Shown piece after piece: positions 532 to 19,439 of a DNA stretch of 64,000 nt. Origin of the DNA: Gemmatimonadales bacterium (GTDB lineage: Bacteria; Gemmatimonadota; Gemmatimonadetes; Gemmatimonadales; GWC2-71-9); the NCBI GenBank assembly GCA_050183815.1, contig JBFXAY010000015.1, forward strand, positions 6,437 through 70,436, written 5' to 3'. The translations under genes and the position numbers were made by a program. Below the pieces are notes generated by a model, which did no database searches, was not told where the DNA came from, and saw only the letters and a list, made by a program, of their open reading frames with translations. Every line of letters starts with the position of its first letter. Positions within the stretch are counted from its first letter, which is position 1.

Positions 532-3474
532 ATGTCTCAGCCAGCCGGAAAATCGGCCGAAAAAGGCGAGAAAGCGGCAGCCCGACCCGGGCGGCCCAGT
601 CGCACCCCGCGCTCGATCCGAGCCCGGGTAGCAACCGCCGTTGCCATTGCCGTGGCGGCCATGGTACTGGTCTCCCTGGCCGTGGCCGGGCGAACGGCGC
701 TCGCCTTCCGGAATCTCGAGCGACGCCAGTATGCGGGGCTCGCGGCTGAGTCCAAGCTCCGGCTTGATCGATTGATCGAGCGGGACCGGGCCCGGATGAT
801 GGAGGTCGGGTTCAACGACGTCCTGTACGCCTACGCAGCCGGTGCCGCGACCGACACGGCGTCGCTGTCGGCCTTCATCGGCCGGTTCACCCTGCAGTTC
901 GGTGACCGGTTCGTCGGCGCCTACGACCTGTCCGGCCGGCGGCTTCTCGGCTGGCGTGCCGCGGGCGCCGAGCCGCTCGAGCAGGTCGCCGCGGCCAACC
1001 CCTTCTTCCGGATTCTCGACAACCGCGAGCCCGCGGCCGGGATCGTCCAGCAGGGCAGCAATCTCTACTGGGTCGCCGGCGCCCCGATCCTGCCGGCCAA
1101 CTATACCGATCAGAATCAGCCGATTCGCGGCTATCTCGTCGTCGCCCAGCCGTTCGTTCCCGGGATGATCGCTCCCGCCCTGGTCGAACGGGCCGGGCGG
1201 CTCGAGCTGATGGCGACCGCACCCGGCGCCTCGCCGTTCGTGACCCGGGTCGACCGCGCCTCGTCGGCCGACAGCAGCCGGATCACCTATACGGTGGCCG
1301 ACATCTTCGCCCAGCAGACGACGCTGGCCACGGCCACCGTCAGCCGGGCCGAGTTCCGCGGCGCCGAGCAGCGGATCCAGCTGATCGTGCTCCTCGGCAT
1401 CGTCGTGCTCTCTGCCCTCGGCTGGGCGGGGTACCGGACCGCCCGGGGCTGGTTCGTCGATCCGATGGAGGCGTTGGCCCGGTCGCTCGCGCCGGCGCAG
1501 GCGGGACAGACGCCCGGCCTCGTCACGCCGGTGTCCGCCGCCGCCGAATGGATGACGGTCACCGGCGCGGTCAACCGCCTGATCTCCAACGCGCGGAGCG
1601 GCAGCGAGCGGTTCGAGCGGCTCACCGCGGCCGGACGCGACGGGCTGTTCGAGCGCGACCTGGGGTCCGGCGACTGGCTCGTGAACGGCCGATTTCGCAC
1701 CCTGGCCGGACTGGGCGAGAGCGATCGCGTCTCGCTCGCCACCCTGCAGCAGCGGCTCGACCCCGCGGCGAGCGAGTTTCTCCAGTGGCTCGGCGCGCCG
1801 CTCCCGGTCCCGGCCAGTGCCTCGATCGAGACCCGGCTCCGGCGTCCCGACAGCGGCGACTGGCTGCCGGTCGAACTCGTGGCGGAGGTCGGCACCGACG
1901 CCAACGGCGTCCCGGCCCGGGTGGTCGGCCGGCTGGCACCGATCGACGATGTGCGCGCCGCGGCCGAGTCGGCGGCGGCGAGTGCGGCGGCCCGGCAGGA
2001 GGAGCGCCGGGAAATGGGCGCCTTCCTCGGGGCGATTGCCCGGACGCTGCCGCCTGCGGCCGATGGGCGAGGCCCGGGGGAGTATCTGGGCTTCATCGGC
2101 GCCGGCCTTCGCGGAACGCTGACCGCGGAACCCGCTCCGTTCGATCTCTACTCGTTGCTCCAGCGGCTGGCCGCCTCGGCCGCCGACGCGGAGATCACGA
2201 TCGTTCCCGGCGTCCCGGAGCGGGTGACCGGTGACCGCCGCCTCCTCGAGGCCGCGGTGGCGGCGCTGCTGCCCCTCTCGACCGGGAGCCGGATCGGGTT
2301 GCGAGTCGACCAGCCCGAACGGCACCGGCCGGAGCTGCTCCGGTTCACCGTCGAGGAGCGGGCCGACGAGGTCGACGCCGCCCGCGCCGACCGCATCAAC
2401 CGAGCGCTCACCACCGGCCAGGCCGACGGTGAGTTGCTGGTGGAATGCCGGGCCGCGCACCATCTCGCGGCGGCGCTGGGCGGTGCGGCGGGTCTCGAGC
2501 GCGATCGGGCGCTGCTCCGGCTCTGGGTGTCCGCGGTGCTTCCGGGCGCCGCGATTCCCGGTGCTGCGGTCGAGGAGACCGCTGCGACCCCGGCCTGGGA
2601 CGAGCCGACGACGTTCGAACTCGACGGCGACCCAACCGTGCCCGCCGAACCGGCGACCTTCAAGGCGCGGCCGTCGCGGCCCGAGCCGGCCGTCGAACTC
2701 GTGGCCGACGCCACCGTCACCATCAATTTCGACGACCCGGTCGCCGCAGCACCGCCGGTCGGGACCGCCTTCAGGACCCGGTTGCTGGACGGCGCGGCCG
2801 ACGCGCGGGACGCGGTCCGGGCGGCCCTCGGTGACGTCCCCGGCTGTCTCGGCGAGATCCGCCGGGCGCTCCACGCCGGCGCATCGCGGGCCGCGGTCGC
2901 CTCGGCCGAGACGATCACCCGCCTGGCCCAGGCCATCGACGCCACGCCGTTGCGCACTGCGGCGGCCGATCTGATCGACAGCCTCGACAATCAGTACGCC
3001 GAATCGGTGACCGACCAGGTGACCAACCTCGAAGGCGCCTGGACGGCGGTGGAGGTTGCGCTCGCCGAGATCGAATCCCGGCTGCCCCCGATGCCGGCGC
3101 TGCCGGCGCCGGCTGTCGCTCCTCCCGCGGCCGAACCCGCGATCGACCCGGCAACGCTGAGCCAGCTCTCCGCGTCGCTCGGGTCGGGACTGGGCGGCCA
3201 GCTGCTGACGCTGTTTCTGACCGAGGCGCCGCTCCGGCTCGAGGCCGTCGAGCAGGCGGCCCGGGCAAGTGACTGGCAGACGGTCCGGGCCACGGCCCGC
3301 GACCTCAAGGGCATGTGTGCCCTGGTCGGGGCGGGCCCGCTGGCCGCCTCGTGCGAGAGGATGGCCGCCGTGGACGGACCGACCGAATGGACCGCCTTGC
3401 TCGCCCTCCGGTCGGAGTGGGAGCGGGTGCAACACGTACTCGAGGGACTGATGGGCGCCAGAACGGTCGCCTAA
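532..3474 (+). CDS. Membrane sensor pseudo-histidine kinase: TM-CHASE4-like-TM-HAMP-PAS-degenerate HisKA/HATPase-2x His-less Hpt
   Basis: Two hydrophobic TM segments flank a periplasmic domain. PAS start 'ERFERL...DGLFERDL'. H-box remnant FLGAIARTL (canonical FLATMSHEI). 'VTGDRRLL' HATPase entry with no N, G1 or G2 boxes. C-terminal Hpt 'ARDLKGMCALVGA..LA..C'. Confidence 0.75.
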   Translation: MSQPAGKSAEKGEKAAARPGRPSRTPRSIRARVATAVAIAVAAMVLVSLAVAGRTALAFRNLERRQYAGLAAESKLRLDRLIERDRARMMEVGFNDVLYAYAAGAATDTASLSAFIGRFTLQFGDRFVGAYDLSGRRLLGWRAAGAEPLEQVAAANPFFRILDNREPAAGIVQQGSNLYWVAGAPILPANYTDQNQPIRGYLVVAQPFVPGMIAPALVERAGRLELMATAPGASPFVTRVDRASSADSSRITYTVADIFAQQTTLATATVSRAEFRGAEQRIQLIVLLGIVVLSALGWAGYRTARGWFVDPMEALARSLAPAQAGQTPGLVTPVSAAAEWMTVTGAVNRLISNARSGSERFERLTAAGRDGLFERDLGSGDWLVNGRFRTLAGLGESDRVSLATLQQRLDPAASEFLQWLGAPLPVPASASIETRLRRPDSGDWLPVELVAEVGTDANGVPARVVGRLAPIDDVRAAAESAAASAAARQEERREMGAFLGAIARTLPPAADGRGPGEYLGFIGAGLRGTLTAEPAPFDLYSLLQRLAASAADAEITIVPGVPERVTGDRRLLEAAVAALLPLSTGSRIGLRVDQPERHRPELLRFTVEERADEVDAARADRINRALTTGQADGELLVECRAAHHLAAALGGAAGLERDRALLRLWVSAVLPGAAIPGAAVEETAATPAWDEPTTFELDGDPTVPAEPATFKARPSRPEPAVELVADATVTINFDDPVAAAPPVGTAFRTRLLDGAADARDAVRAALGDVPGCLGEIRRALHAGASRAAVASAETITRLAQAIDATPLRTAAADLIDSLDNQYAESVTDQVTNLEGAWTAVEVALAEIESRLPPMPALPAPAVAPPAAEPAIDPATLSQLSASLGSGLGGQLLTLFLTEAPLRLEAVEQAARASDWQTVRATARDLKGMCALVGAGPLAASCERMAAVDGPTEWTALLALRSEWERVQHVLEGLMGARTVA

Positions 3475-3491
3475 CGCCGAGGAAGAAGCCA

Positions 3492-6400
3492 ATGACCGAT
3501 ACCGAACGCGAATTCTCCTCCGCCTCCGACCAGGCCGGCCGCGGCCGCAGCCCCGGGGTGGCCGACTATCTCGTTGCGATGAGCCATGAGCTTCGGGCTC
3601 CGCTCAACGCGATCATCGGGATGTCGGGACTGCTCCTCGAGGACGAGCTGGAGCCGAAGCAGCGCCAGTACGTCAAGAGCCTGCACGGCGCGGGGGAGAG
3701 TCTCTCGGCGATCATCAACGACGTCCTCGACCTCGCCCGGACGGCCGGCAGCCGCCTGGTCATCGAACCGATCGCCTTCGACCTCAAGTCGACGATCGAG
3801 GAGACGGCCAGCGCCCTCTCGCCGCGGGCCGCCGAGCGCGGACTCACGCTGCGGGTCGACTGGCGGCCCGAACTGCCGCGGCAGGTGGTCGGCGATCCGG
3901 GCCGGACCCGCCAGGTCCTCGGCAACCTCGTCGGTCACGCGGTCAACGCGATGAGCCAGGGCGAAGTGGTCATCCGGGTACAGCCCGACGGTGACCGTGA
4001 CGGAACCGCCTCGATCCGTTTCGTGGTCGAGGACACCGGCATCGGCATCTCGCCGGCCCGGCTCGAACGGATCTTCCAGGACTATATCCCGGTCGACGCG
4101 TCGCCCTACCGCTCCTTCGGCGTCACGGGGCTCGGCCTCCGGCTCTCCGCTGAGCTGGTGCGGCTCATGGGCGGCCAGATCGGCGCCGAGAGCAACGCCG
4201 GCCAGGGCACCCGGCTCTGGTTCTCGCTCCCGATGGCGGCGGCCGAGGCGCCCAGCGTCACGGTGCGCGAGCCGGCGGTAGGCGGTCGGATGCTGATCGT
4301 CGAGGCCGATCCGTCGAGCCGGAGCCGGATGTCCGATCAGGTGGAATCGGTCGGCTGGTCGGTCGACTTCTGCGACGATCTCGAAGGTCTCGTCGAGGAA
4401 CTGCGCGAGGCCGAGGCCGTCGGCGACGGCTATCAGGTCTGCTGCTTCTCCCACTACGCCGTGCGGCCGGTGCACCTCGACCTGGCCACCCGGCTCAAGG
4501 CGGATCCGTCCCTGGGCCGGATCTCGCTCGTGATGATCACCGCCGTCGGCAGTCCGGGCGACGGGAAGAAGCTCTGGCACGCCGGCTTCGCTGCGTACCT
4601 CCGGAAGCCGGTCTCCTCCGAGGAGTTCAGCGAGACCCTCGCGGCGCTCCAGCAGGTGGACCATCAGGGCCGGGGCCCCATGCTGATCACCCGCCACTCG
4701 CTGGCCGAGGCCCGGAACGCCCAGACGTTCGAGACCGAAGGCATCGACGAGATGCTGGCCAGTCTCACCGCCCCGGAGCCGTTGCCGGCGCCGGATGCGG
4801 AGGTCGTGGCCGCGGCACCGGAGCCGATCGCGGAAACCGAGGCTCCGGCGAGCGACGACGCGCTGGAAAATTGGCTGGCGTCATTGCCGGCCCCCGAGGG
4901 ATCGGGACCGGCCGAAGGGCTGGACGCCGCCGAGGAGGTTGTCGGCAACGCGACGGACGACATCGCGGTACCGGCGGCTCAGGCCGACGAGCCGTCGCTC
5001 GGGTTCGAGGAACCGGCGCTGACCGCGGACCCGGACGGGCCGGCCGTCGTCGAGGCGCCGGTCGTCCTGGAACAGCCGGTCGCACCGATGACGCCGGATA
5101 CCGCGGATGAGACCCCGGTGGTTGCGTTGCCGCTGTTCGCCGGGGCACCGGAGGCGCCCCGGGCCGGGCCGGCGGCGGACGAATCCACCGACGAGGAGGC
5201 GCCGGTCTTCCTTCATGTCGACGTACCCGAGGAACCGATGTCCGCCGCGGCCGAGCCGACGCTCGAGGTCGCGGTCGACGTCGATCTCGATCTCGACGCT
5301 GCCGCGGCAATCGAACCGGAGGACGAGGGTCCGGTGGCCGGACTCGTGGCACCCGGCGCGAGCCTCACCGACGGGCCCGACGCGGACGTTACACCGGTCC
5401 CGCAGCTCGACGTGCCCGAATGGGAGGACGCCACGCCGGTCGACGCCGTCGACGGATTGATCACCCCCGACATCGATTCGGATCGCGACGCGGTCGTCGA
5501 GCCGTTCGATGTGGCCGGCATCGGCGATCCGATCTTCCCGGTGGAGACCGAGGAATCGGCAGCCGAACCCGCGACCGCCGGCGCCCCGGCGCCGGAAGCG
5601 GAACCGGCCGCGGCGTTCGATCTTCACCTGGACGACGTCGCCGCCGACGACCGCGAGGCGGCTCCGACGCCGATCGAGGCCATTGCCGAAATCGACCCGG
5701 CGGCCGAGGCGCCGGCGATCTCCCTCGGCACCGACGACCTGGCCATCGAGTCGTCGCCCGATTCGCCGGTGCTCGAACCGACCGTCGACGGCAGCGCCCT
5801 CGGCCTGCTGGCCGACACGCCGGACCTCGAGCCCCAGCCCGACGGCGGCGACGACGGCCTTGGCCTGATGTCGACGGGGGACTTCGTGTCCGCCGAACCG
5901 GTGGGGGCGGGCGCTGCGGTGCCGGACACCGGCCACCTGGACGTCGTCGGCTTCGCGATCGTGGACCAGCTCTCGCACGGTGGCGGGTTCTTCACCCAGT
6001 ACACCGTGGCGTCGTTCGCGCGGGATACGCCGGCATTGATCGCCGGCCTCGCGAGCAAGGCCGCCCGGGCCGACCGCGACCGGAGCCGGGCGGATCTCGA
6101 AGCGGTGACGGCGGCCGCGCAATCGGTCGGTGCCGCGCGCCTCGAGGCACTGGCCCAGCATGCCCTGGCGGAGGTGGCCGAGGGGCGGACGGAGTTCAGC
6201 GGCGTCCTCGGCGCGATGGAGGCCGCGTTCCTCGAGGCCCGGGCCGCGCTCGAGCGCTCGGCCCCGGCGGGCCTCCCGGCCGATCAACCGGCCGTGGGGA
6301 CGGCGTTCGCGGACCAGTTGTCGCCGGCGAACGACGGGCCGGCCCGGATGCTGGCGCTCAAACTGGTCGACTCGTTCACCGTCGAGGCACCTGCGCGGGT

Positions 6401-6632
6401 GGCCGACCTCAAGTCGGCGGTCACTGCGGGCGAGGCGGACGGGGCGCAGCGGGTGGCCCAGACCCTCAAGGGGATGTGCGGTCTGATCGGCGCCGAGCCG
6501 CTGGCCAAGCTCTGCGCTCTCGTCGAGGCTGACGCGCGGCTCAAGCGAGTGAACCTGGCCGAGCGGTATCTCGGCCCGATCGAACTCGAACTGGGCCGGG
6601 TCCAGCAGGGGCTGGCACGCGCTCGCGGCTGA
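3492..6632 (+). CDS. Cytoplasmic atypical hybrid kinase: HisKA-HATPase-pseudoREC-acidic disordered linker-2x His-less Hpt
   Basis: H-box MSHELRAPLNAIIG intact. N-box NLVGHA, G1 DTGIG, G2 FGVTGLGL. REC fold (LIVEAD...CCFSH...ITA...YLRKP) lacks the phospho-Asp. Hpt 'AQTLKGMCGLIGA'. ATG 3492 follows GAGGAAG. Confidence 0.8.
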   Translation: MTDTEREFSSASDQAGRGRSPGVADYLVAMSHELRAPLNAIIGMSGLLLEDELEPKQRQYVKSLHGAGESLSAIINDVLDLARTAGSRLVIEPIAFDLKSTIEETASALSPRAAERGLTLRVDWRPELPRQVVGDPGRTRQVLGNLVGHAVNAMSQGEVVIRVQPDGDRDGTASIRFVVEDTGIGISPARLERIFQDYIPVDASPYRSFGVTGLGLRLSAELVRLMGGQIGAESNAGQGTRLWFSLPMAAAEAPSVTVREPAVGGRMLIVEADPSSRSRMSDQVESVGWSVDFCDDLEGLVEELREAEAVGDGYQVCCFSHYAVRPVHLDLATRLKADPSLGRISLVMITAVGSPGDGKKLWHAGFAAYLRKPVSSEEFSETLAALQQVDHQGRGPMLITRHSLAEARNAQTFETEGIDEMLASLTAPEPLPAPDAEVVAAAPEPIAETEAPASDDALENWLASLPAPEGSGPAEGLDAAEEVVGNATDDIAVPAAQADEPSLGFEEPALTADPDGPAVVEAPVVLEQPVAPMTPDTADETPVVALPLFAGAPEAPRAGPAADESTDEEAPVFLHVDVPEEPMSAAAEPTLEVAVDVDLDLDAAAAIEPEDEGPVAGLVAPGASLTDGPDADVTPVPQLDVPEWEDATPVDAVDGLITPDIDSDRDAVVEPFDVAGIGDPIFPVETEESAAEPATAGAPAPEAEPAAAFDLHLDDVAADDREAAPTPIEAIAEIDPAAEAPAISLGTDDLAIESSPDSPVLEPTVDGSALGLLADTPDLEPQPDGGDDGLGLMSTGDFVSAEPVGAGAAVPDTGHLDVVGFAIVDQLSHGGGFFTQYTVASFARDTPALIAGLASKAARADRDRSRADLEAVTAAAQSVGAARLEALAQHALAEVAEGRTEFSGVLGAMEAAFLEARAALERSAPAGLPADQPAVGTAFADQLSPANDGPARMLALKLVDSFTVEAPARVADLKSAVTAGEADGAQRVAQTLKGMCGLIGAEPLAKLCALVEADARLKRVNLAERYLGPIELELGRVQQGLARARG

Positions 6633-6689: not shown

Positions 6690-6821
6690 GTTGGCGGCCG
6701 GCGGGACCTCGAGCCGTCGCGTTCCCTTCCGGGCGGTGGGTCCTCTAGCCGCCACCGCCGGGCGGCTTTAGGGTTCGGGATGATCGGGACGCCGATCACA
6801 TCCTTTCCCGGAGCCACCGCC

Positions 6822-9800
6822 ATGCCATTCCCGACCGTCCGGCTGCTCCCGGCCGCGGCCGTTCTCGTTCTGGTCGCCACGCCGGCAGCCGCCCAGCGTC
6901 GTACGGCCCGACCCGCCGCTCCACCCGCCCTCGATCCCGCCTGGCTCGACGGGCTCACCTGGCGGAACGTCGGCCCCTTCCGCGGCGGCCGGGCTACGAC
7001 CATCACCGGCGTGCCGGGCCAGCCCATGGTCTACTACTTCGGCGCCACCGGCGGCGGGATCTGGAAGACCGACGATGCCGGTGCGACCTGGAAGCCGATC
7101 GCCGATGGCCAGCTGCGGATGGGGTCCGTCGGCTCCATCGCCGTGGCGGCCGGCGATCCGGCCGTGATCTACGCCGGCACGGGCGAAGCTCCGGTCCGCG
7201 GCGTGTCGTCGTCGTTCGGCGACGGGATGTACAAGTCCACCGACGCCGGGAAGACCTGGCGTCACACCGGGCTCGCCGGCTCGCGGACGATTTCCCGCGT
7301 CCTGGTTCACCCCCGGAACGCCGATCTGGTCTACGTCGCGGCCCAGGGCAGCCGGTGGGGCCCCAGCGCCGAACGGGGCGTCTATCGATCCACCAACGGG
7401 GGATCGGACTGGAAACTCGTTCTGAGTGGCGATTCGCTCACCGGACCGGCGGACCTCGCCATGGATCCCTCGAACCCCCGGATCCTCTACGCCGCGATGT
7501 GGGACGCGCAGCGCACCCCCTGGTTCGCCCGCAGTGGCGGACCCGGCAGCGGGATCTGGAAGTCGGTCGACGGCGGCGACTCCTGGACCCGGCTGACCCG
7601 CGGCCTGCCCGCGCTGATGGGCAAGATCGGTCTGGCGGTGTCGGCGGCGGATCCGAACCGGATCTGGGCCATCGTCGAAGCGGACGCGGGCGGCCTCTAC
7701 CGCTCCGACGATGCCGGCGCCAGCTGGACGCTCGTCAACGGTGACCGGGTGCTTCACGCCCGCGCCTGGTACTACATGCGGGTGACCGCCGACCCGGCCA
7801 ATCGCGACCTCGTGTACGTGATCAACGCCCCGGTGCTCAAATCGATCGACGGCGGGAAGAGCTTCACCGAGCTGGCCGATCCCCACGGCGACAACCATGA
7901 CGTCTGGATCAATCCGGCCAACCCCGCCAATCTCGCCAAGGCCGACGATGGGGGCGGCGTGGTCTCGTTCAACGGCGGCGTTACCTGGTCCAGCCAGATG
8001 AACCAGCCGACCGCGCAGTTCTACCGCGTCAGCGTGGACGACCGCTACCCGTACTGGCTCTACAGCGGCCAGCAGGACAACTCCTCCGTGGCCATCCCGA
8101 GCGCGGTCACCGGACCGGGCATCGGGAACGATGCCTTCCGCGACGCCGGCGGCTGCGAGAGTGCCCATGTGGCGTTCGATCCGGCTGATCCCCGCTACCT
8201 CTACGCCAACTGCTACGGCGGAATCATCACGGAGTACGACCGGGACCTGGGCCAGGCCCGCAACGTGATGGCCTATCCGTTTCTCGGCCTCGGGGAACCG
8301 AGCGACAAGATGAAGTACCGTTGGAACTGGTCGAGCCCGATCATCACCTCGCCCCACGATCGGAAGGTGATCTACCACGGCGGGAACGTGCTGTTCCGGT
8401 CGAACGACCGGGGCCAGAGCTGGACCGCCGTGAGTCCCGACCTGACCCGCAACGACAGGAGCCGGCAGGGTCCCGGCGGCGGCCCGATCACCAACGAAGG
8501 CGCCGGCGGCGAGGTCTACAACACGATCTATTACGTGGCGGAATCGCCGGTGCAACAGGGTGTGCTGTGGGTGGGTACCGACGACGGTCTGGTGCAGCTG
8601 ACCCGGGACGGCGGCCGGACCTGGGCCAACGTGACCCCGGCCGGGCTGGCCGAGAGCCTGATCAACATGGTCGAGCCCTCGACCCGGAGCGCGGGTACGG
8701 CATTGATCGCCGTGAGCCGCTACAAGTGGAACGACAACACCCCACTCGTCTTCCGCACCACCGACTTCGGCGCCACCTGGACCCCGTTCACCGCGGGGTT
8801 GCCCGCCGGGGAAATCGTTCGCGTGGTCCGGGAAGACCCCGAGCGGGAAGGGCTCCTCTACGCGGGAACCGAAACGGGCTTCTGGGTTTCGAGCGGCGGC
8901 GGCCCCTGGCAGCGGCTCCAGCTCAACCTGCCCCACGTTCCGATCACCGACATCCGGGTCCATCACGGCGACCTCGTGATCGCGACCGAAGGCCGGGCCT
9001 TCTGGATTCTCGACGACATCACGCCGGTTCGGGATCTGGCCGGCGGATCCGCCAACAGTCCGGTCCTGTTCCCGATCCGCACCGCGGTTCGCACTTTCCT
9101 GGGCTCGAACGCGCCGCCGCCTCCCGGCATGGGGCGCAACGCTCCGCAGGGGGCGATCATTTCGTTCCGGATCGCGGACACGAGCGCCGTGGCCCGGCTC
9201 GAGATGCTCGACGGCACCGGCAAAGCGGTCCGGACCTATGCGTCCGATGCCAAGCCGCCGGCGGGCCGCCTCGCGATCCGGTCCGGATTCAACCGCATGG
9301 TCTGGGACCTCCGCGGCGAAGGTCCCACCCGCGTCGAGGGACTCGGCCCCGCCGGCGGCGGCGCGAGCGGGTACCGGCTGGCGCCTGGCCGCTACCAGGC
9401 CCGCCTCACCACCGGCGACGCCGTGCTCACGCAGAGCTTCGAGGTCGTCGCCGATCCGCGCACCCGCCCCGCGCCGGCCGCCGTGGCCGAGCAGCAGCGG
9501 GCCCTCGGTCAGGTGTGGGGGCGGGTCGATGAGATCAACCGGCGCGCCAATCAGCTCCGCTCGGTCCGGCAGCAGGTCAAGGCGCTCGTCGAGCGGGTGG
9601 CCGCCCGGGCGGACGCCGACACCATTCGGACCACCGCGGAGCATCTCACGGCCGCGATCGACTCGGTCGAATTGCTCATCATCAATCCCCGGATCAAGAC
9701 CTTCCAGGACGTCATCAACTTCCGGAACGGGTTGAGCGATCAGTACCAGGACCTCGCCGGCGCGATCGACGGCACCGACGAGCCGGTCACGGCCGGGATG

Positions 9801-9953
9801 CGGGAGCGGCTCGCCGACCTCGACGGCATGTGGCGGGAGCAGGTCGCCCGGATCGACCGGATTCTGGGCGCCGAGCTCGGCGCGTTCAACGCACTCGTGA
9901 GGGGACGGGACGTCCCCGCCATCATTCTTCCGGAAAGAGGCGCCACGCCATGA
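6822..9953 (+). CDS. Secreted VPS10/sortilin-like BNR-repeat glycosyl hydrolase-like protein
   Basis: Signal peptide, 'WRNVGPFRGGR', many S/T-x-D-x-G-x-T/S-W Asp-box repeats, C-terminal coiled coil. Confidence 0.85.
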   Translation: MPFPTVRLLPAAAVLVLVATPAAAQRRTARPAAPPALDPAWLDGLTWRNVGPFRGGRATTITGVPGQPMVYYFGATGGGIWKTDDAGATWKPIADGQLRMGSVGSIAVAAGDPAVIYAGTGEAPVRGVSSSFGDGMYKSTDAGKTWRHTGLAGSRTISRVLVHPRNADLVYVAAQGSRWGPSAERGVYRSTNGGSDWKLVLSGDSLTGPADLAMDPSNPRILYAAMWDAQRTPWFARSGGPGSGIWKSVDGGDSWTRLTRGLPALMGKIGLAVSAADPNRIWAIVEADAGGLYRSDDAGASWTLVNGDRVLHARAWYYMRVTADPANRDLVYVINAPVLKSIDGGKSFTELADPHGDNHDVWINPANPANLAKADDGGGVVSFNGGVTWSSQMNQPTAQFYRVSVDDRYPYWLYSGQQDNSSVAIPSAVTGPGIGNDAFRDAGGCESAHVAFDPADPRYLYANCYGGIITEYDRDLGQARNVMAYPFLGLGEPSDKMKYRWNWSSPIITSPHDRKVIYHGGNVLFRSNDRGQSWTAVSPDLTRNDRSRQGPGGGPITNEGAGGEVYNTIYYVAESPVQQGVLWVGTDDGLVQLTRDGGRTWANVTPAGLAESLINMVEPSTRSAGTALIAVSRYKWNDNTPLVFRTTDFGATWTPFTAGLPAGEIVRVVREDPEREGLLYAGTETGFWVSSGGGPWQRLQLNLPHVPITDIRVHHGDLVIATEGRAFWILDDITPVRDLAGGSANSPVLFPIRTAVRTFLGSNAPPPPGMGRNAPQGAIISFRIADTSAVARLEMLDGTGKAVRTYASDAKPPAGRLAIRSGFNRMVWDLRGEGPTRVEGLGPAGGGASGYRLAPGRYQARLTTGDAVLTQSFEVVADPRTRPAPAAVAEQQRALGQVWGRVDEINRRANQLRSVRQQVKALVERVAARADADTIRTTAEHLTAAIDSVELLIINPRIKTFQDVINFRNGLSDQYQDLAGAIDGTDEPVTAGMRERLADLDGMWREQVARIDRILGAELGAFNALVRGRDVPAIILPERGATP

Positions 9954-14107: not shown

Positions 14108-14291
14108 GCAGGATCCGGTTCGGGGTGGAACCTAACTTCGCTCTGAGCCCGCCCCGGCGCGAGCCTCAAGCGCCGTGCGAACAGGCCGATGCTACTAGCT
14201 GTGGCCCCTGAGGCCGCCGTACTCGGAGGCTCGGCATCGTGCAGTGCGTTGAAGGCGCGGCGGGGAGCGTTGGCCGCTCCGGGACCGCGAA

Positions 14292-16940
14292 GTGAGCGTT
14301 CCGATCGCCGCGGGCCTGATGGCCCTGATCGTGGCAGGATGGTGGCTTCGGACCCGGGTCGTCGAACCCGCCCGCGCCATCCGGGTGGCACTCCGCCGCC
14401 GAACCGAGGGGGACCATTCGGCCCGGTCATCGGTGACCGCCGGACCCCTGGAACCGGTCGGGGCCGCCGTCAACGACTTCTTCGCCACCCTCGACCTGGC
14501 CGAGCGAGACCGGGACCAGGCCCAGAAGGCCCTGGCCGTGCAGGAGCGGCTGGCCCGCGAGAGCGAGGAGCGCTGGCAACTCGCCCTCCAGGCGAACAAC
14601 GACGGGATCTGGGACTGGAATCTCGAGACCAACGCGGTCTGGTTCTCGCCGCGCTGGAAGGAACTCGTCGGGCACACCGACGAGACCCTGCCGCACGCCT
14701 TCGAAAGCTGGCGTGACAACGTCCATCCGGACGATCTCCAGGACACGCTCCGGATGGTGCAGGAGTTTCTCGACGGGAGCCGCCGGACCTACGACCCGAT
14801 CTTCCGGATGCGGCACCGCCGGGGCCATTGGGTCTGGATCCTGGCGCGGGGGGTGAAGCTCGAGCGGGACGGCCGCCCGGTTCGAATGGTCGGGTCGCAC
14901 TCCGACGTGACCGATCGCCGGCTCACCGAGCAACGCCTGCTCGAGAACGAAAGCCGGCTCCGCAACGTCCTCGACACGACCACCGACGCCATCCTCCAGC
15001 TCGACGGTGAGCGGTTCGTGAGCTACCTCAATCCGGCCTGGCGCGCCCTGACCGGTCTGCCGACCGTCACCTACCTCGGCCAGCGACTCGACGAAGTGTT
15101 CGTGCCCGAGGATCGGGGCGCGTTTGCGCGACTGGTGGATGCCCTCTACGAAGGCGACGAGCCCGCCGCCACCGCCGAGCTGCGCATCGAGACCCGGCCC
15201 CGGGGCGCCCGCTGGTTCGAGTTGCGGATGCGGCGGGCCAAGGGGAACGACGGTAACGTGGTCGGCATCACCGGGTCCCTCCGCGACGTGCACGACGCCA
15301 AGGAAACCACGGTGGCGCTACGGCTGGCGAAGGATGCCGCCGAATCGGCCGCCCGCGCCAAGGGCGATTTCCTGGCCACCATGAGCCACGAGATCCGGAC
15401 GCCGATGAACGGCGTGCTCGGCATGATCAGCCTCCTCCGGGATACCTCACTCTCCAACGAGCAGCGGGAGTTCGTCGACACGGCCCGGCAGTCGGCCGAA
15501 GTGCTCCTCACGATCATCAACGACATCCTCGATCTCTCGAAGATCGAAGCGGGCCAGCTCCGGCTCGACAACGTGACCTTCGATCTCCAGGGCGTGGTCG
15601 GTGAGGTCGGCGATCTGCTCGCGCCCCAGGCCCGACAGAAGGGAATCCAACTCGCGGTCGACTACCCCGTCGGCGCGCCGACCCTGTTCCGAGGCGATCC
15701 GAACCGGCTCCGGCAGGTACTGTTCAACCTTGCCGGAAACGCGGTCAAGTTCACTGAGGAGGGTCACGTCATGCTGGCGGTCCGGGTCCGCGCCCGGGGC
15801 GACCGGGCCGGCCTCCGGATCGAGGTCCGCGATACCGGCATCGGAATCGACCCCGAGGACGTCAGCCGCCTGTTCACCAGCTTCACGCAGGCAGATCCGT
15901 CGACGACCCGCCGCTTCGGCGGCACCGGACTCGGCCTGGCGATCAGTCGGCAACTCGTGGAGCTGATGCTCGGACGCATCGGCGTGGAAAGCGAGGTCGG
16001 CAAAGGATCGACGTTCTGGATCGAACTGGAACTGGACACCGGTGCCACGACGTCCGAGGATGCCGACGTAGCCGCCGACCTGTCCGGCATCCGGATTCTG
16101 GTGATCGACGATTCCCAGATCGACCGTTGGGTCATCGCCGAGCAGCTGCGGCCGCTGTCCGCCACCGTCGTCCTTGTCGATTCATACGACGAAGCGATGG
16201 TGGCGATCCGCCGCGCCGCGGACTACGAGCCCTTCGACATCGTTCTCGCCGATTCGTTCCTTCCCGACGGCCGCGGTGAAGACCTGGCGCAGCGGGTGTT
16301 CGCCGAAGGTCTCCATCCGGTGGCTCACTGGATCCTCGTCTCCGGGGCGGTCCGCCCGGGCTATACCCAGGACATCGAGCGCGCCGGGTTCGCCGGCTAC
16401 CTCGCCAAACCGATTCGGGGCAACGTGCTTCGGAAAATGGTGGCCGAGTTGGCCGCTCGCCGGGGCGCCACCAGTTCAACGACCTTCCTGACCCGGGGCC
16501 TGCTCACCGAAACCACCGGCCCGCGGAAGCTGGCGCCGGTCGCAGGCTGGACGGCCAAGGTCCTGCTGGTCGAGGACAATCCGGTCAACCAGGTCGTGGC
16601 GGACCGGATGCTCCGAAAGCTCGGCTGCCAGGTGGACGTCGCGAGCAACGGTTCGGAAGCCGTCGAGCGGGTGACCGCCACCCGCTACGACCTGGTGTTC
16701 ATGGACTGCCAGATGCCGATCATGGACGGCTACGAGGCCACCCGGTCGATCCGGAGGACGGAGGACCGCGATCACCGCCTTCCCATCGTGGCCATGACGG
16801 CCAACGCCATGGAAGGCGACCGGGAGCGGTGCCTGGACAACGGCATGGACGACTACATCAGCAAACCGGTCGATCCGGAAGCCGTGATCCGCGCTCTCGA
16901 GCAGTGGGCCGCTCGGCCGGTGGAGCCCGCCGGCGCCTGA
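14292..16940 (+). CDS. Intact hybrid sensor histidine kinase TM-HAMP-PAS-PAS-HisKA-HATPase-REC-REC
   Basis: FLATMSHEIRTPMNG, NLAGNAVKFT, DTGIG, FGGTGLGL. REC1 'VIDDS...VLAD', REC2 'VEDN...FMDCQMP...MTA...SKP'. Confidence 0.93.
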   Translation: MSVPIAAGLMALIVAGWWLRTRVVEPARAIRVALRRRTEGDHSARSSVTAGPLEPVGAAVNDFFATLDLAERDRDQAQKALAVQERLARESEERWQLALQANNDGIWDWNLETNAVWFSPRWKELVGHTDETLPHAFESWRDNVHPDDLQDTLRMVQEFLDGSRRTYDPIFRMRHRRGHWVWILARGVKLERDGRPVRMVGSHSDVTDRRLTEQRLLENESRLRNVLDTTTDAILQLDGERFVSYLNPAWRALTGLPTVTYLGQRLDEVFVPEDRGAFARLVDALYEGDEPAATAELRIETRPRGARWFELRMRRAKGNDGNVVGITGSLRDVHDAKETTVALRLAKDAAESAARAKGDFLATMSHEIRTPMNGVLGMISLLRDTSLSNEQREFVDTARQSAEVLLTIINDILDLSKIEAGQLRLDNVTFDLQGVVGEVGDLLAPQARQKGIQLAVDYPVGAPTLFRGDPNRLRQVLFNLAGNAVKFTEEGHVMLAVRVRARGDRAGLRIEVRDTGIGIDPEDVSRLFTSFTQADPSTTRRFGGTGLGLAISRQLVELMLGRIGVESEVGKGSTFWIELELDTGATTSEDADVAADLSGIRILVIDDSQIDRWVIAEQLRPLSATVVLVDSYDEAMVAIRRAADYEPFDIVLADSFLPDGRGEDLAQRVFAEGLHPVAHWILVSGAVRPGYTQDIERAGFAGYLAKPIRGNVLRKMVAELAARRGATSSTTFLTRGLLTETTGPRKLAPVAGWTAKVLLVEDNPVNQVVADRMLRKLGCQVDVASNGSEAVERVTATRYDLVFMDCQMPIMDGYEATRSIRRTEDRDHRLPIVAMTANAMEGDRERCLDNGMDDYISKPVDPEAVIRALEQWAARPVEPAGA

Positions 16941-17062: not shown

Positions 17063-18409
17063 ATGGACCCGTTGGAGCGTCTCTCCCAGACCGAGCTGGC
17101 CCGATTCGAGGCGCGCACCGCCGCGTCCGGGCAGTGGTATCGCCGAGCCGCCGAGGTCATGCCCGGGGGTGACACCCGGACAGGCACCTACCATCTCCCC
17201 TTTCCGCTGTTCATTGCCGAGGGCCAGGGAGCCCGGGTCCGGGACGCCGACGGCAACGAGTACCTCGACTTCCTGAACAACTTCACCTCGCTGCTTCACG
17301 GACACGCCCATCCGGCGATCCTGGCGGCGCTGGAGGAACAGGCCCGCCGCGGAACCGTGCACGGATCGGCCAATCCGCTCCAGGTCCGGCTGGCCGAAAC
17401 GATCCGGAGCCGGGTGCCCTCGGTTGAGCGGCTCCGGTTCTGCAATTCGGGCACCGAGGCCACGCTGTTCGCGCTCCGGGCGGCCAAGGCGGCCACCGGC
17501 AAGTCCCGTATCATGAAAATGGCGGGCGGCTATCACGGGTCGCACGACCAGGTGGCGGTCGCGATGGCGCCGCCCTACGGCACCGGTGCCACCCTCGGCC
17601 TCTCGCCGGGCGCGTTGGCCGAGGTGACGCTCGGACGGTTCAATGATCTCGACTACACCGCGGATCTCATCCGGCGAAACCGGGACGCATTGGCCGCGGT
17701 CATCGTCGAGCCGATGATGGGTTCGGGCGGCGCGCTGCCCGCGGATCCGGCCTTTCTGCGAGGACTCCGGGAAGTGACCGCCGATTCCGGCGTGCTCCTG
17801 ATCCTCGATGAGATCATCACGTTCCGGCTCGGGTTCGGCGGCCTCCAGGAGACCCTCGGCATCCGGCCGGACCTGACCACGTTCGGCAAGATCATCGGCG
17901 GCGGCCTGCCGGTTGGTGCGTTCGGCGGACGGGCCGACGTGATGGCCAGCTACGACCCAACTCGGCCGGGGACCATCACCCACTCCGGCACCTACAACGG
18001 CAACGCCGCCACCATGGCGGCCGGGCTCGCCGCGCTCGAACAGTATCCGCGCGCGGAGGTCGCCCGCCTCAACGGACTCGGCGACCGGCTTCGCGCCGGG
18101 ATGCTCGCCGCCATCGACGAGGCCGGCGTTCCGGCCACGGTCACCGGGTACGGATCGGTCCTCCAGGTGCACTTCGCCGCCGGACCGCTCCGCACCGTGG
18201 CCGATACCGATGGCGCCGACCGCCGGCTCGGCAAGCTGCTCCATCTCGCCCAGCTGAACCGGGGCGTCTTCGCGGCCGCCCGCCAGATGTACGTTCTCTC
18301 GACCCCGATGTCGGAACGCGAAGTCGACGACTGCCTCGGCCGCTTTGCCGACGCCCTCGGCACCATGGCGCGCGCGGGAGCCTCCCGACCTACGTCGGTC
18401 GCCACCTGA
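17063..18409 (+). CDS. Class III PLP aminotransferase (glutamate-1-semialdehyde aminomutase-like)
   Basis: 'NSGTEA', 'GGYHG', 'DEIIT.R', 'TFGKIIGGG.PVGAFGG', 'HSGTYNGN'. TACAAT -10-like box upstream. Confidence 0.88.
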   Translation: MDPLERLSQTELARFEARTAASGQWYRRAAEVMPGGDTRTGTYHLPFPLFIAEGQGARVRDADGNEYLDFLNNFTSLLHGHAHPAILAALEEQARRGTVHGSANPLQVRLAETIRSRVPSVERLRFCNSGTEATLFALRAAKAATGKSRIMKMAGGYHGSHDQVAVAMAPPYGTGATLGLSPGALAEVTLGRFNDLDYTADLIRRNRDALAAVIVEPMMGSGGALPADPAFLRGLREVTADSGVLLILDEIITFRLGFGGLQETLGIRPDLTTFGKIIGGGLPVGAFGGRADVMASYDPTRPGTITHSGTYNGNAATMAAGLAALEQYPRAEVARLNGLGDRLRAGMLAAIDEAGVPATVTGYGSVLQVHFAAGPLRTVADTDGADRRLGKLLHLAQLNRGVFAAARQMYVLSTPMSEREVDDCLGRFADALGTMARAGASRPTSVAT

Positions 18410-18461
18410 CCCCGCGGCGGCGCCGCGCGGCCCATCCGTCCCTCACACCGCCTCGACATCG

Positions 18462-19439
18462 ATGACCCGCACCCTCCGATCGCTGACGCTCCTGCTGGTG
18501 GGCCTGGCCGCCTGCAATCCGCAACCGCCGGCCCCGCCGCCCGCGGATCTCGGCCGGGAAATCGCCGGCCTGCTCGACGGACTCTCGGCCCGCAGTTCGC
18601 TGTTTGCCCGGCACGGTCCCAGCGGCGATACCGTGGCGGTGCGGGCCGATCAGCCGATGAACACGCTGAGCGTCATCAAGATCCCCGTCATGATCCGGGT
18701 CGTCCGCGACGTCGAGGCCGGCCGCCTTCGGCTGGCGGATCGTCACAACCTCCGCCCGGAGGAGCTCAGGCGGGGAAGCGGGCTGCTCCAGACCTTCGAT
18801 CCGGGGCTGAGCGTCACGGTCCGGGATCTCGTCGTGCAGATGATCATCACGAGCGACAACACCGCCACCGATATCCTCATCGGGCTCGTCGGCCTCGACC
18901 GGGTCAACGCGATGCTCGACACCCTCGGGTTCAAGACGACCCGGCTCCGGATGACCACCGGGGCCCTTTTTCGCGAAGTCTGGATCCGCGCCGACCCGGC
19001 CAACCGGACGATGACGGACCGCGAGGTATTCGACCGCGGCTTCCCGGGTGACTCCGGCGCAGGTGCGCGGAGCTTTGCCCTCGAGGGTGACTCGACCAGT
19101 TGGCTCGGCGTGACCAGTGCCCGCGAGATGGTGACGATGCTCGAGGGCATTCTCGCCAACCGCTACGCCTCGGCCGATCACAGCCGGATGATGGTCGACA
19201 TTCTCTCCCGCCAGTTCTACGCCTCCCGGCTCCCGCAACGGGTGCAGTGGCAGGGCGTCGGCGTCGCCCACAAAACCGGCGACTGGCCGCCGCTGGCCGG
19301 CAACGACGTCGGGATCCTGTTCTATTCCGGCGGTCCCACGGTGGTCGCGGTCTTCACCGGACAGAACACCGGCGACTTCACCGAACTCGAGGCGACCGAG
19401 GGACGGATCGCCGAACGCCTTGTCAAGGAGTGGAAGTGA
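18462..19439 (+). CDS. Lipoprotein serine hydrolase, class A beta-lactamase/PBP-A fold
   Basis: Lipobox LAAC. SVIK, SDN and KTG motifs. Confidence 0.85.
   Translation: MTRTLRSLTLLLVGLAACNPQPPAPPPADLGREIAGLLDGLSARSSLFARHGPSGDTVAVRADQPMNTLSVIKIPVMIRVVRDVEAGRLRLADRHNLRPEELRRGSGLLQTFDPGLSVTVRDLVVQMIITSDNTATDILIGLVGLDRVNAMLDTLGFKTTRLRMTTGALFREVWIRADPANRTMTDREVFDRGFPGDSGAGARSFALEGDSTSWLGVTSAREMVTMLEGILANRYASADHSRMMVDILSRQFYASRLPQRVQWQGVGVAHKTGDWPPLAGNDVGILFYSGGPTVVAVFTGQNTGDFTELEATEGRIAERLVKEWK

Follow-up and report, generated by a model that had tools for sequence, protein, structure and literature searches.

A putative two-gene pseudo-phosphorelay conserved within one genus of Gemmatimonadales

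Pseudo-histidine kinases and pseudo-receivers are recognised and poorly understood, and the known examples are single proteins in otherwise active relays. RcsD sits in the membrane and acts together with a hybrid kinase whose gene lies close by. RcsC is itself active as a kinase and its receiver is intact, and the plant protein AHP6 is a competitive inhibitor of its relay. RetS is described as a kinase-like hybrid protein that regulates GacS by heterodimerisation between DHp domains (PMC12189002; PMC8498467). In ShkA of Caulobacter crescentus (PDB 6qrj) a pseudo-receiver is reported to dock on the DHp domain and to be released by cyclic di-GMP (PMC12632262), and DivL, also from Caulobacter, is presented as a kinase fold that now serves as a binding sensor in the control of another kinase (PMC12189002; PMC4211667). 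The subject of this report is a pair of adjacent genes, gene 1 and gene 2, at positions 532-6632 of a 64,000-nucleotide stretch (the window) from a Gemmatimonadales bacterium (GenBank assembly GCA_050183815.1, contig JBFXAY010000015.1). Judged from sequence, the pair stands as an old, selected pseudo-phosphorelay: seven relay-derived domains, distributed over two co-inherited proteins, are without their chemistry, and all of them are under purifying selection.

Gene 1 (532-3474) encodes a membrane sensor pseudo-kinase of 980 residues with two His-less Hpt-like domains, and gene 2 (3492-6632) encodes a soluble pseudo-hybrid kinase of 1046 residues; both genes, and all features described in them, are on the + strand. 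Profile searches with HMMER and structure prediction confirm the relay folds in both (Pfam, AlphaFold, Foldseek). A preliminary description of the window had assigned a full BarA-like architecture to the pair. The relay folds are indeed kept, but the domains are divided between two genes, gene 1 being without a receiver and gene 2 without a sensor, and the locus does not qualify as an unorthodox kinase of the BarA/GacS type (NCBIfam BarA, 225 bits against a cut-off of 890). The five substituted codons named there, those of R504 and R923 in gene 1 and of H149, S320 and Q990 in gene 2, are correct, and alignment places each of them at a catalytic position. A published survey puts the share of domains without the phospho-site at 0.9% for HisKA and Hpt alike and at 2.0% for receivers (PMC12632262). 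With rates as low as these, the losses that co-occur in gene 1 and gene 2 are far from chance.

The losses extend through the family. Gene 2 was tallied over 53 sequences, including that of the window and one without its N-terminus, against an outgroup of the 68 nearest ordinary hybrid kinases, and further columns were tallied from alignments of 37 gene 2 and 21 gene 1 rows. The N-box Asn is present in 0/52 family members (His in 44, Tyr in 7, Gln in 1) versus 68/68 of the outgroup, and the N-box Lys shows the same division, 0/52 versus 68/68. The phospho-Asp of the receiver is Ser in all 53 members, versus Asp in 57/68 ordinary kinases. The His of the outer Hpt is found in 0/37 gene 2 and 0/21 gene 1 rows, and the same alignments hold no conserved His in any Hpt-like domain of either gene. 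The preliminary description had named close orthologues with intact His and Asp, or other His and Asp residues at the acceptor sites, as signs against its reading. These counts contain no such orthologue, the Hpt-like domains have no other conserved His or Asp, and the window receiver has no Asp in strand β3, in the loop that follows or anywhere within residues 316-328. An Asp directly after Ser320, considered as an alternative acceptor, was rejected: the column is Asp in 25 and His in 27 of 53 members, the window having His, and it has changed just twice on the family tree. The function of the family would then not depend on this Asp, although in the members with Ser-Asp the sequence alone would allow an acceptor role.

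Pfam divides gene 2 into HisKA (residues 29-83), HATPase_c (134-249), a sub-threshold receiver (268-382) and Hpt (958-1039). Its AlphaFold model consists of DHp, CA and receiver folds, two helices, a disordered stretch at 427-807 and two four-helix bundles, and the best Foldseek match is ShkA (PDB 6qrj, 369 columns, including the ShkA pseudo-receiver), followed by GacS and RetS. The DHp domain (3558-3755, residues ~23-88; Pfam HisKA 7.6e-16) has kept its H-box His, His32 (3585-3587), as had been noted for the window copy. Its phosphatase motif reads HELRA, not HExxT/N, and the T/N position is Ala in 35, Gly in 1 and Thr in 1 of 37 rows. The CA domain (HATPase_c, 3756-4241, residues ~89-250) retains G1 (DTGIGI), the YR of the lid and G2 (GVTGLGL), and its N-box reads NLVGHAVNA, with His149 (CAC 3936-3938) in place of the Mg-binding Asn and Asn in place of Lys. 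A phmmer comparison with solved structures aligns this motif with NLVGNAIKF of GacS (7z8n), and when gene 2 is aligned by MAFFT to the 68 ordinary hybrid kinases, H149 coincides with the Asn that all of them share (68/68). The pseudo-receiver (4284-4661, residues ~265-390) is modelled with a (βα)5 fold. It has Ser320 (TCC 4449-4451) at the phospho-Asp position, which the MAFFT alignment places on the receiver Asp of the ordinary kinases (57/68), it has E-A as its acidic pair, and Thr350 and Lys372 are kept. Over the family the first Glu of the acidic pair is present in 52/53 and the second position is Ala in 42/53, while the Thr and the Lys/Arg are each present in 53/53. The Response_reg score of 18.6 bits lies below the cut-off of 30.2, and 28 of the 37 members match this model at E<=0.01.

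The H-box His is less stable than the pocket that would serve it. It is present in 41/52 family members versus 68/68 of the outgroup, with at least six independent changes on the family tree and both of the deepest branches without His. All 53 members have the G1 Asp, and the glycines of G2 persist; one clade (8/53) has lost the second Gly of G1. In the 11 His-less members D181, G183, Y206, R207, G213 and G215 are each found in 11/11, and the identity of CA to the family consensus is 0.80 in His-less and 0.84 in His-bearing members. Since the CA pocket is intact in the His-less members, it is not kept for autophosphorylation alone. On these counts the H-box His, absent from 11/52, would be dispensable in the family, and what selection keeps in CA is not autophosphorylation alone, and perhaps not autophosphorylation at all. 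The restriction of the Asn replacement to His, Tyr and Gln suggests an altered ligand site rather than a void.

The same domains are where a different explanation, that gene 2 is still an autokinase, has to be weighed. According to it, His149 (Tyr or Gln in some members) would act as a metal or phosphate ligand, His32 would donate to an unlinked response regulator, the receiver and Hpt would be dead and regulatory, and gene 1 would modulate the kinase. The presence of the H-box His in 41/52 members, the window included, agrees with this, as do the essentially invariant G1 Asp/Gly, lid Tyr/Arg and G2 glycines, the low ratio of nonsynonymous to synonymous substitution rates (dN/dS ~0.05) in DHp and CA, and the active kinases GacS and ShkA among the nearest solved relatives. 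The N-box Asn, however, is the Mg ligand of the Bergerat fold, whose mutation abolishes kinase activity in EnvZ-type kinases, and both it and the Lys are absent from all 52 members and present in all 68 of the nearest ordinary kinases. Moreover, His has been lost at least six times with no loosening of the CA pocket, and the phosphatase T/N has been lost too, which leaves a DHp without both catalytic signatures. A pseudo-receiver that regulates an active kinase does have a precedent, as reported for ShkA (10.1101/675454; PMC12632262). Taken together, the autokinase explanation is unlikely, though for the window copy itself, with H-box His, G1, G2 and lid all intact, the sequence would allow an active autokinase.

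The remainder of gene 2 begins with a conserved helical segment, LITRHSLAEARNAQ...GIDEMLA (4662-4769, residues ~391-426), that follows the pseudo-receiver and in which T400, R401, H402, L404, A405 and E406 are invariant. It leads into an acidic, Ala/Pro-rich disordered linker (4770-5936, residues ~427-815), with a predicted local distance difference test score (pLDDT) below 50 for residues 427-807. This 381-residue stretch is 20% Ala, 14% Pro, 13% Asp and 12% Glu, has no Lys and carries a net charge of -89; a disordered linker of variable length is present in all orthologues. The inner four-helix bundle (5937-6266, residues ~816-925, modelled helices 821-923) has no Pfam match on its own and has E870 at the His position, in a hypervariable column with His in 4/37. 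The outer Hpt domain (6339-6629, residues ~950-1046; Pfam Hpt 1.8e-10) has Q990 (CAG 6459-6461) at the His position, where the column is Gln in 32 and Pro in 5 of 37 rows, and the neighbouring columns are Lys in 37/37, Gly in 35/37 and Cys in 31/37. Public collections contain a protein (P0273) of 609 residues identical to the C-terminal part of gene 2, whose start must fall inside the disordered linker.

The nearest ordinary relatives of gene 2 are hybrids with the order histidine kinase, first receiver, second receiver and Hpt (HK-REC1-REC2-Hpt). Gene 2 appears to descend from a hybrid kinase of this kind in which REC2 was replaced by the acidic linker. REC1 of the nearest hybrids already has the pattern T-x-VG..GD...AGFAAYL.KP, and is followed by the linker ITRHSLAE, which joins REC1 to REC2 in these ordinary hybrids and is invariant in gene 2. 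It may act as a latch like the REC1-REC2 linker of ShkA. In some of the hybrids REC1 itself is degenerate, with EAD in P0061 and VDPD in P0059, each together with Thr at the Asp position, and Asn there in P0060. As a separate observation, P0055-P0122 form a widespread HK-REC1-REC2-Hpt subfamily with ITRHSLAE, and several members have a degenerate REC1.

In the AlphaFold model of gene 1 (mean pLDDT 79.6), two transmembrane helices enclose an alpha/beta periplasmic domain; then come, in order, PAS, a helical hairpin, a CA-like domain of alpha/beta fold, a disordered linker at 678-743 and two four-helix bundles. Foldseek matches the model to PAS-kinases, RetS, GacS and ShkA. Pfam finds Hpt (890-967) and a sub-threshold CHASE4, and nothing else. 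The periplasmic CHASE4-like sensor domain (706-1347, residues ~59-272) is flanked by transmembrane helices at ~29-55 and ~273-300. The window copy scores 21.9 bits against CHASE4 (PF05228; E 2e-4), which is below the cut-off of 26.2, and all 21 gene 1 orthologues match at E<=0.01, the best at 1.9e-10. The cytoplasmic PAS domain (1627-1944, residues ~366-471), with modelled strands and helices at 371-470, is matched by PAS_3 in 15/21 orthologues, and most profile-search matches outside the genus came from this part of gene 1.

A profile of the 21 orthologues aligns residues 472-690 of gene 1 with the DHp-CA cores of real PAS-kinases. The pseudo-DHp hairpin (1945-2121, residues ~472-530, modelled helices 472-505 and 515-527) is about 31 residues shorter than in these kinases, and R504 (CGG 2041-2043) is aligned on the H-box His. 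The column is variable (Pro 5, Arg 4, Glu 3, Ala 3, Asp 2, and one each of Asn, Thr, Gly and Leu), with His in 0/21, and Pfam HisKA is found in 0/21 orthologues. The degenerate CA (HATPase_c-like) domain (2122-2547, residues ~531-672) is modelled with an alpha/beta fold. Its N, G1 and G2 boxes are not preserved in the profile alignment to real kinases, in agreement with the preliminary description, and HATPase_c is detectable in just 3/21 orthologues. The gene 1 core thus does not qualify as a histidine kinase but retains fold and profile homology to DHp-CA. Deep-branching orthologues are more kinase-like, and an N-box-like NA remains in three of them (L028, L030, L031), a pattern that would fit stepwise degeneration of a real kinase.

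The linker of gene 1 at 678-743 is variable and of low confidence, and its sole strongly conserved element is a short motif, VELVADATVTI..D (2695-2733, residues 722-734), in which L723, V724, A725, D726, V729, I731 and D734 are invariant although the surrounding pLDDT is below 50. In one profile alignment the motif falls on receiver strand β1 and the acidic pair. It may be the remnant of a lost receiver that now serves as a short docking motif.

The two bundles that end gene 1 repeat the pattern of gene 2. The inner four-helix bundle (2764-3087, residues ~745-852, modelled helices 745-850) is weakly Hpt-like (Pfam Hpt E 0.0043, below the cut-off) and has E793 at the His position, in a column of Glu 8, Gln 5, Thr 2, Val 2, Ile 1 and three gaps (His 0/21). 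The outer Hpt domain (3148-3471, residues ~873-980; Pfam Hpt 4.8e-13), for which Hpt is matched in 21/21 orthologues, has R923 (CGC 3298-3300) aligned on the His of a real Hpt (AAHKLKG of P0192), with a column of Gly 5, Asn 4, Glu 3, Asp 3, Thr 2, Ala 2, Arg and Lys (His 0/21) and adjacent columns of Gly in 20/21 and Cys in 18/21. All three His-equivalent columns of gene 1 are therefore variable and His-less in 21/21. In one subclade (L025, L026 and L027 in genomes G005, G006 and G021) gene 1 is ~855-875 residues long, with the whole inner bundle absent and the outer one retained; the gene 2 N-box position in this subclade is Tyr, not His.

All four Hpt-like domains have the bundle fold, none has the phospho-His signature (HxxKG), and the two outer ones pass Pfam Hpt. 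The earlier claim that the inner domains of both genes lack His holds (E793, E870), but their likeness to Hpt is weak by sequence (E 0.0043 in gene 1, no match in gene 2). The inner bundles are homologous to each other by hhalign, and residues 741-974 of gene 1 and 817-1045 of gene 2 are collinear (probability 99.75%, E 2.6e-27, 25% identity), so that the tandem pseudo-Hpt module must have been duplicated between the two genes. In a word-based search for it in longer proteins, this tandem module was found in gene 2 family members alone (46/46 matches).

All genomes in the comparison are uncultured metagenome-assembled genomes. The genome search covered 41 of them, the window's own and 40 relatives (21 from the same genus, 19 from other genera). 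Full-length gene 1 is present in the window's genome and in 20/21 of the other same-genus genomes. None of the 19 from other genera yielded it; in four of these the search gave only partial matches, to Hpt or the sensor domain. In 20/20 loci the gene next downstream of gene 1 is a gene 2 orthologue, and the synteny that the preliminary description had proposed to test is found in 20/21 other same-genus genomes. The reading frames, intact in the window as it had stated, are also intact in 20/20 same-genus loci, with three gene 2 copies cut just by contig ends. A phylum-wide sample of 301 genomes, searched with a stricter first look so that weak matches may be missing, gave full-length gene 1 matches in this genus alone (5/5 genomes, the window's included). 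Among the other matches listed, there were PAS or kinase-core parts, with the N-terminal sensor region in two genomes; the unpublished genomes G128 and G208 that were included gave one PAS-domain match and one match, respectively. The gene 1 profile, run against 1.84 billion representative proteins, found ~15 full-length relatives and a few shorter partial ones, the rest being multi-PAS kinases. The gene 2 core gave 52 clusters at >=55% identity, of which all named ones are labelled as Gemmatimonad, and below a gap in identity ordinary hybrid kinases follow at <=43%. The family was divided from the outgroup at this gap and then checked on a tree of 52 family and 6 of the 68 outgroup rows, from which one family row shorter than 380 residues was omitted; the family forms one clade with a Shimodaira-Hasegawa-like approximate likelihood ratio test support of 100. 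Identity to the window over the whole protein is 32-51% for gene 1 and 42-56% for gene 2, and 60-71% over the gene 2 core.

Selection was estimated by the Nei-Gojobori method, with domain values pooled over 6 close pairs. Whole gene 1 has a dN/dS of 0.13-0.22 in 8 pairs of >=71% amino-acid identity; a ninth pair, the window against L013, which is 52% identical and near saturation, gives 0.57. Whole gene 2 has 0.135-0.325 in 8 closer pairs. The gene 2 values are 0.058 for DHp, 0.051 for CA, 0.045 for the pseudo-receiver, 0.035 for the helices that follow, 0.345 for the disordered linker, 0.118 for the inner bundle and 0.070 for the outer Hpt. Those of gene 1 are 0.075 for the periplasmic domain, 0.128 for PAS, 0.184 for the pseudo-DHp, 0.196 for the pseudo-CA, 0.222 for the linker, 0.177 for the inner bundle and 0.134 for the outer Hpt. 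Recent decay, which the preliminary description had expected to show as a dN/dS near 1, is excluded because the ratio is far below 1 in every degenerate domain. That the genes are functionless, decaying relics of a normal phosphorelay is accordingly scarcely credible. Many catalytic residues are gone, and one same-genus genome has deleted the pair and left a remnant of the outer Hpt, as decay would have it, but the frames are intact in 20 same-genus loci despite deep sequence divergence, dN/dS is 0.04-0.35 in every segment, and the replacements are conserved in their own right (Ser 53/53, Gln 32/37, His/Tyr 51/52).

The distribution of constraint also bears on the explanation that the pair is a structural scaffold, in which a kinase-like dimer and the acidic disordered region would organise an assembly and the periplasmic domain would just anchor or localise it. 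The gene 2 tether, with its 381 residues and net charge of -89, would suit such a role, and the neighbourhood scan found no regulator gene near the pair. However, constraint within gene 1 is strongest in the CHASE4-like domain (0.075), as for a ligand sensor, PAS is kept between the membrane and the pseudo-kinase, and within gene 2 constraint is weakest in the disordered region (0.345). The model for a scaffold is PsmA at the Streptomyces polarisome, a pseudokinase described as hybrid-kinase-like, with a receiver and a disordered region; it is reported to bind DivIVA and to have no autokinase activity (PMC12963549). On this evidence the scaffold explanation is decidedly unlikely.

The reading preferred here is that gene 1 and gene 2 form a conserved operon in which a phosphorelay has been turned into a phosphate-free signalling pair that works by binding, and on balance this is probable. 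From the data we infer all three of its elements, namely that no phosphate is transferred, that the two proteins are in contact, and that there is an output. Gene 1 would be an inner-membrane sensor with a periplasmic CHASE4-like and a cytoplasmic PAS input. A ligand bound to it would shift the contacts of its cytoplasmic modules with gene 2, through surfaces inherited from the relay, either DHp with DHp or Hpt with receiver. Gene 2 would then regulate a third component allosterically or serve as its scaffold, in the manner of RetS, DivL, RcsD and PsmA. The preliminary description had proposed a membrane sensor and a cytoplasmic partner that signal by binding, heterodimerisation or scaffolding; an old and selected pseudo-phosphorelay is what the data bear out, and the mode of action is still conditional. 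A bolder version, in which a whole multi-step phosphorelay was converted to a phosphate-free allosteric relay with docking surfaces that signal by binding equilibria alone, is tentative and may well not hold. In it the CA pocket, with the adenine-binding Asp, G1, G2 and lid kept, would have become a receptor for some metal, nucleotide or second messenger, and the 380-residue tether (net charge -89) would offer the duplicated tandem pseudo-Hpt module either to the membrane sensor or to another target.

Several observations weigh against a phosphate-free pair. The window copy of gene 2 keeps the H-box His and the G1, G2 and lid residues, its DHp and CA are as constrained (dN/dS ~0.05) as an active enzyme, and the conserved replacements at the Asn position (His 44, Tyr 7, Gln 1) could mean an altered and not a lost nucleotide or metal site. 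The neighbourhood scan found no response regulator or other output gene adjoining the pair, and the physical interaction between gene 1 and gene 2 is itself something we infer. In addition, the same-genus genome G014 (3.1 Mb, 97% complete) is without the pair, which is dispensable there. A complex prediction for gene 1 residues 470-980 with gene 2 residues 1-430, made with alignments, gave a score of 0.00 without controls and weighs neither way.

The syntenic spot in G014 (L046:5005-5823, - strand, G014:C23) contains a 272-residue open frame immediately upstream of BNR, methyltransferase and LOG-like genes. In this frame a DUF4345 membrane domain is joined to the end of gene 2, from the last inner-bundle helix through the outer pseudo-Hpt (AQTLIGMCGLIGA), and its last 117 residues are 63% identical to gene 2 of the window. 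Either a deletion left this frame as a remnant, or it encodes a new fusion protein.

The window has a G+C content of ~72%, and the two long genes were called real from G+C by codon position (0.88 at third positions in gene 1). Gene 1 is defined by its open reading frame and translation, and gene 2 by its translation. For gene 2 the list of open reading frames gives GTG 3315 as the start, but ATG 3492 is more likely. This ATG is 17 nucleotides past the TAA of gene 1 and is preceded by the purine-rich GAGGAAGAAG. It is favoured because orthologous gene 2 starts sit 12-17 nucleotides after the gene 1 stop, with a similar gene 2 N-terminus, in the 15 orthologous loci measured by script; in the other five of the 20 loci, spacers derived by hand from the coordinates are 20-40 nucleotides. 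Automatic annotation of the two genes is unstable; gene 1, for instance, begins only at residue 44 in the ESM Atlas. DNA sequencing runs containing the stretch (X1, possibly its source, and X2) are labelled landfill metagenome; runs X3 and X5-X7, with small shares, were left out of the habitat assignment, and parts without cover carry no weight. An RNA-library run labelled wastewater (X4) has small contigs 90-98% alike on parts of both genes, and one piece of 286 bases covers 3239-3524, across the junction of gene 1 and gene 2. These contigs are a relative's, and DNA is possible in such a library, so they are at most a weak hint of expression and co-transcription.

Upstream of the pair are genes for an amidase, DinB and DUF2911, and downstream are a BNR/sortilin-like gene, a methyltransferase and a LOG-like gene. 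The first of these (6780-9953, just 3' of gene 2) encodes a BNR/Asp-box, sortilin-Vps10-like protein of 1057 residues. It follows gene 2 in 11/20 orthologous loci with 67-81% identity, a conservation far above that of gene 1, and methyltransferase or LOG-like genes are found downstream within the fetched stretch in 6 further loci of the 20. As a component of the system the BNR/sortilin gene was rejected, since it follows gene 2 in 11/20 loci and is still there in G014, which has no pair; the two are probably unrelated. Further along the window, an ordinary-looking hybrid kinase of 895 residues (14253-16940) has PAS_3 in two stretches, PAS/PAS_4, HisKA, HATPase_c and two receivers, and could be an active partner, though it does not adjoin the pair. 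A 393-residue open reading frame at 18258-19439 was identified in the neighbourhood scan by a Pfam Beta-lactamase2 match (2.3e-51).

A literature search, outside which supplementary files lay, found no description of the gene 1-gene 2 pair or of a system that combines these losses, as the preliminary description had supposed, and no paper that ties Gemmatimonadota to pseudokinases or pseudo-receivers. What it found were reviews, single pseudo-kinases, pseudo-receivers and plant pseudo-Hpt proteins. If the bolder version is true, the pair would be the first bacterial signalling pathway made wholly of two-component pseudo-domains. The pair is also a natural test case for the surfaces, among those of DHp, CA, receiver and Hpt, that persist once phosphate chemistry goes. 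Since the last His has been lost repeatedly while the CA pocket was kept, the prediction is that a nucleotide or other ligand binds without autophosphorylation. Should this prediction hold, a whole phosphorelay can evolve into a binding-only pathway, and domain-based annotation such as 'ATP-binding protein' would misdescribe systems of this kind.

Each of the known systems shares some features with the pair and differs in others. Gene 1 resembles RcsD in its order of sensor, pseudo-kinase and Hpt with no receiver; RcsD is described as carrying a pseudo-kinase domain and a C-terminal Hpt (PMC3762810). ESM Atlas neighbours of the cytoplasmic part of gene 1 include HATPase_c+Hpt+RcsD_ABL clusters with scores of 0.83-0.84, which are below 0.9 and give a lead only, and neither RcsD_ABL (PF16359) nor NCBIfam RcsD matches gene 1 or its 21 orthologues, so the likeness is architectural only. 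The Hpt of RcsD is reported to hand phosphate to RcsB (PMC3762810), whereas the bundles of gene 1 are His-less; gene 1 also has a CHASE4 sensor, a PAS domain and two such Hpt-like bundles.

By sequence and by fold, the cores of RetS and GacS rank among the best matches to gene 2 (E 1e-38 and 2e-49, respectively), and they match the gene 1 pseudo-kinase too. In the alignment, however, RetS keeps the N-box Asn/Lys and has degenerate G1/G2, and gene 2 is the reverse. RetS is also described as still taking part in phosphotransfer and dephosphorylation (PMC12189002). RetS and its partner are unlinked, and RetS lacks both an Hpt and a disordered tether. ShkA has the order of DHp-CA followed by a pseudo-receiver that is seen in gene 2, but it is active as a kinase, its second receiver is functional and its Hpt is a protein of its own, whereas gene 2 is without the N-box Asn, REC2 and the Hpt His. 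DivL (PDB 4q20) is among the matches of gene 2 as well. It has Tyr at the His site and is a single protein without receiver or Hpt, and its operon is not known to encode a second pseudo-kinase.

Among plant proteins, AHP6 shares with the pair an Hpt fold without the phospho-His, and the literature search met the term 'pseudo-HPt' mostly in plant papers. AHP6 is a single small eukaryotic protein, whereas here four such domains are fused to two bacterial kinase-like proteins. PsmA of Streptomyces venezuelae, as it is described, resembles gene 2 in its variable H-box residue, the absence of a D/ExxT/N motif, its disordered region and receiver, and its action by binding (PMC12963549). It comes from another phylum and is unrelated at the family level, and it differs in having no Hpt and no membrane partner, in its unconserved ATP-binding motifs, and in a receiver Asp that is present but unneeded.

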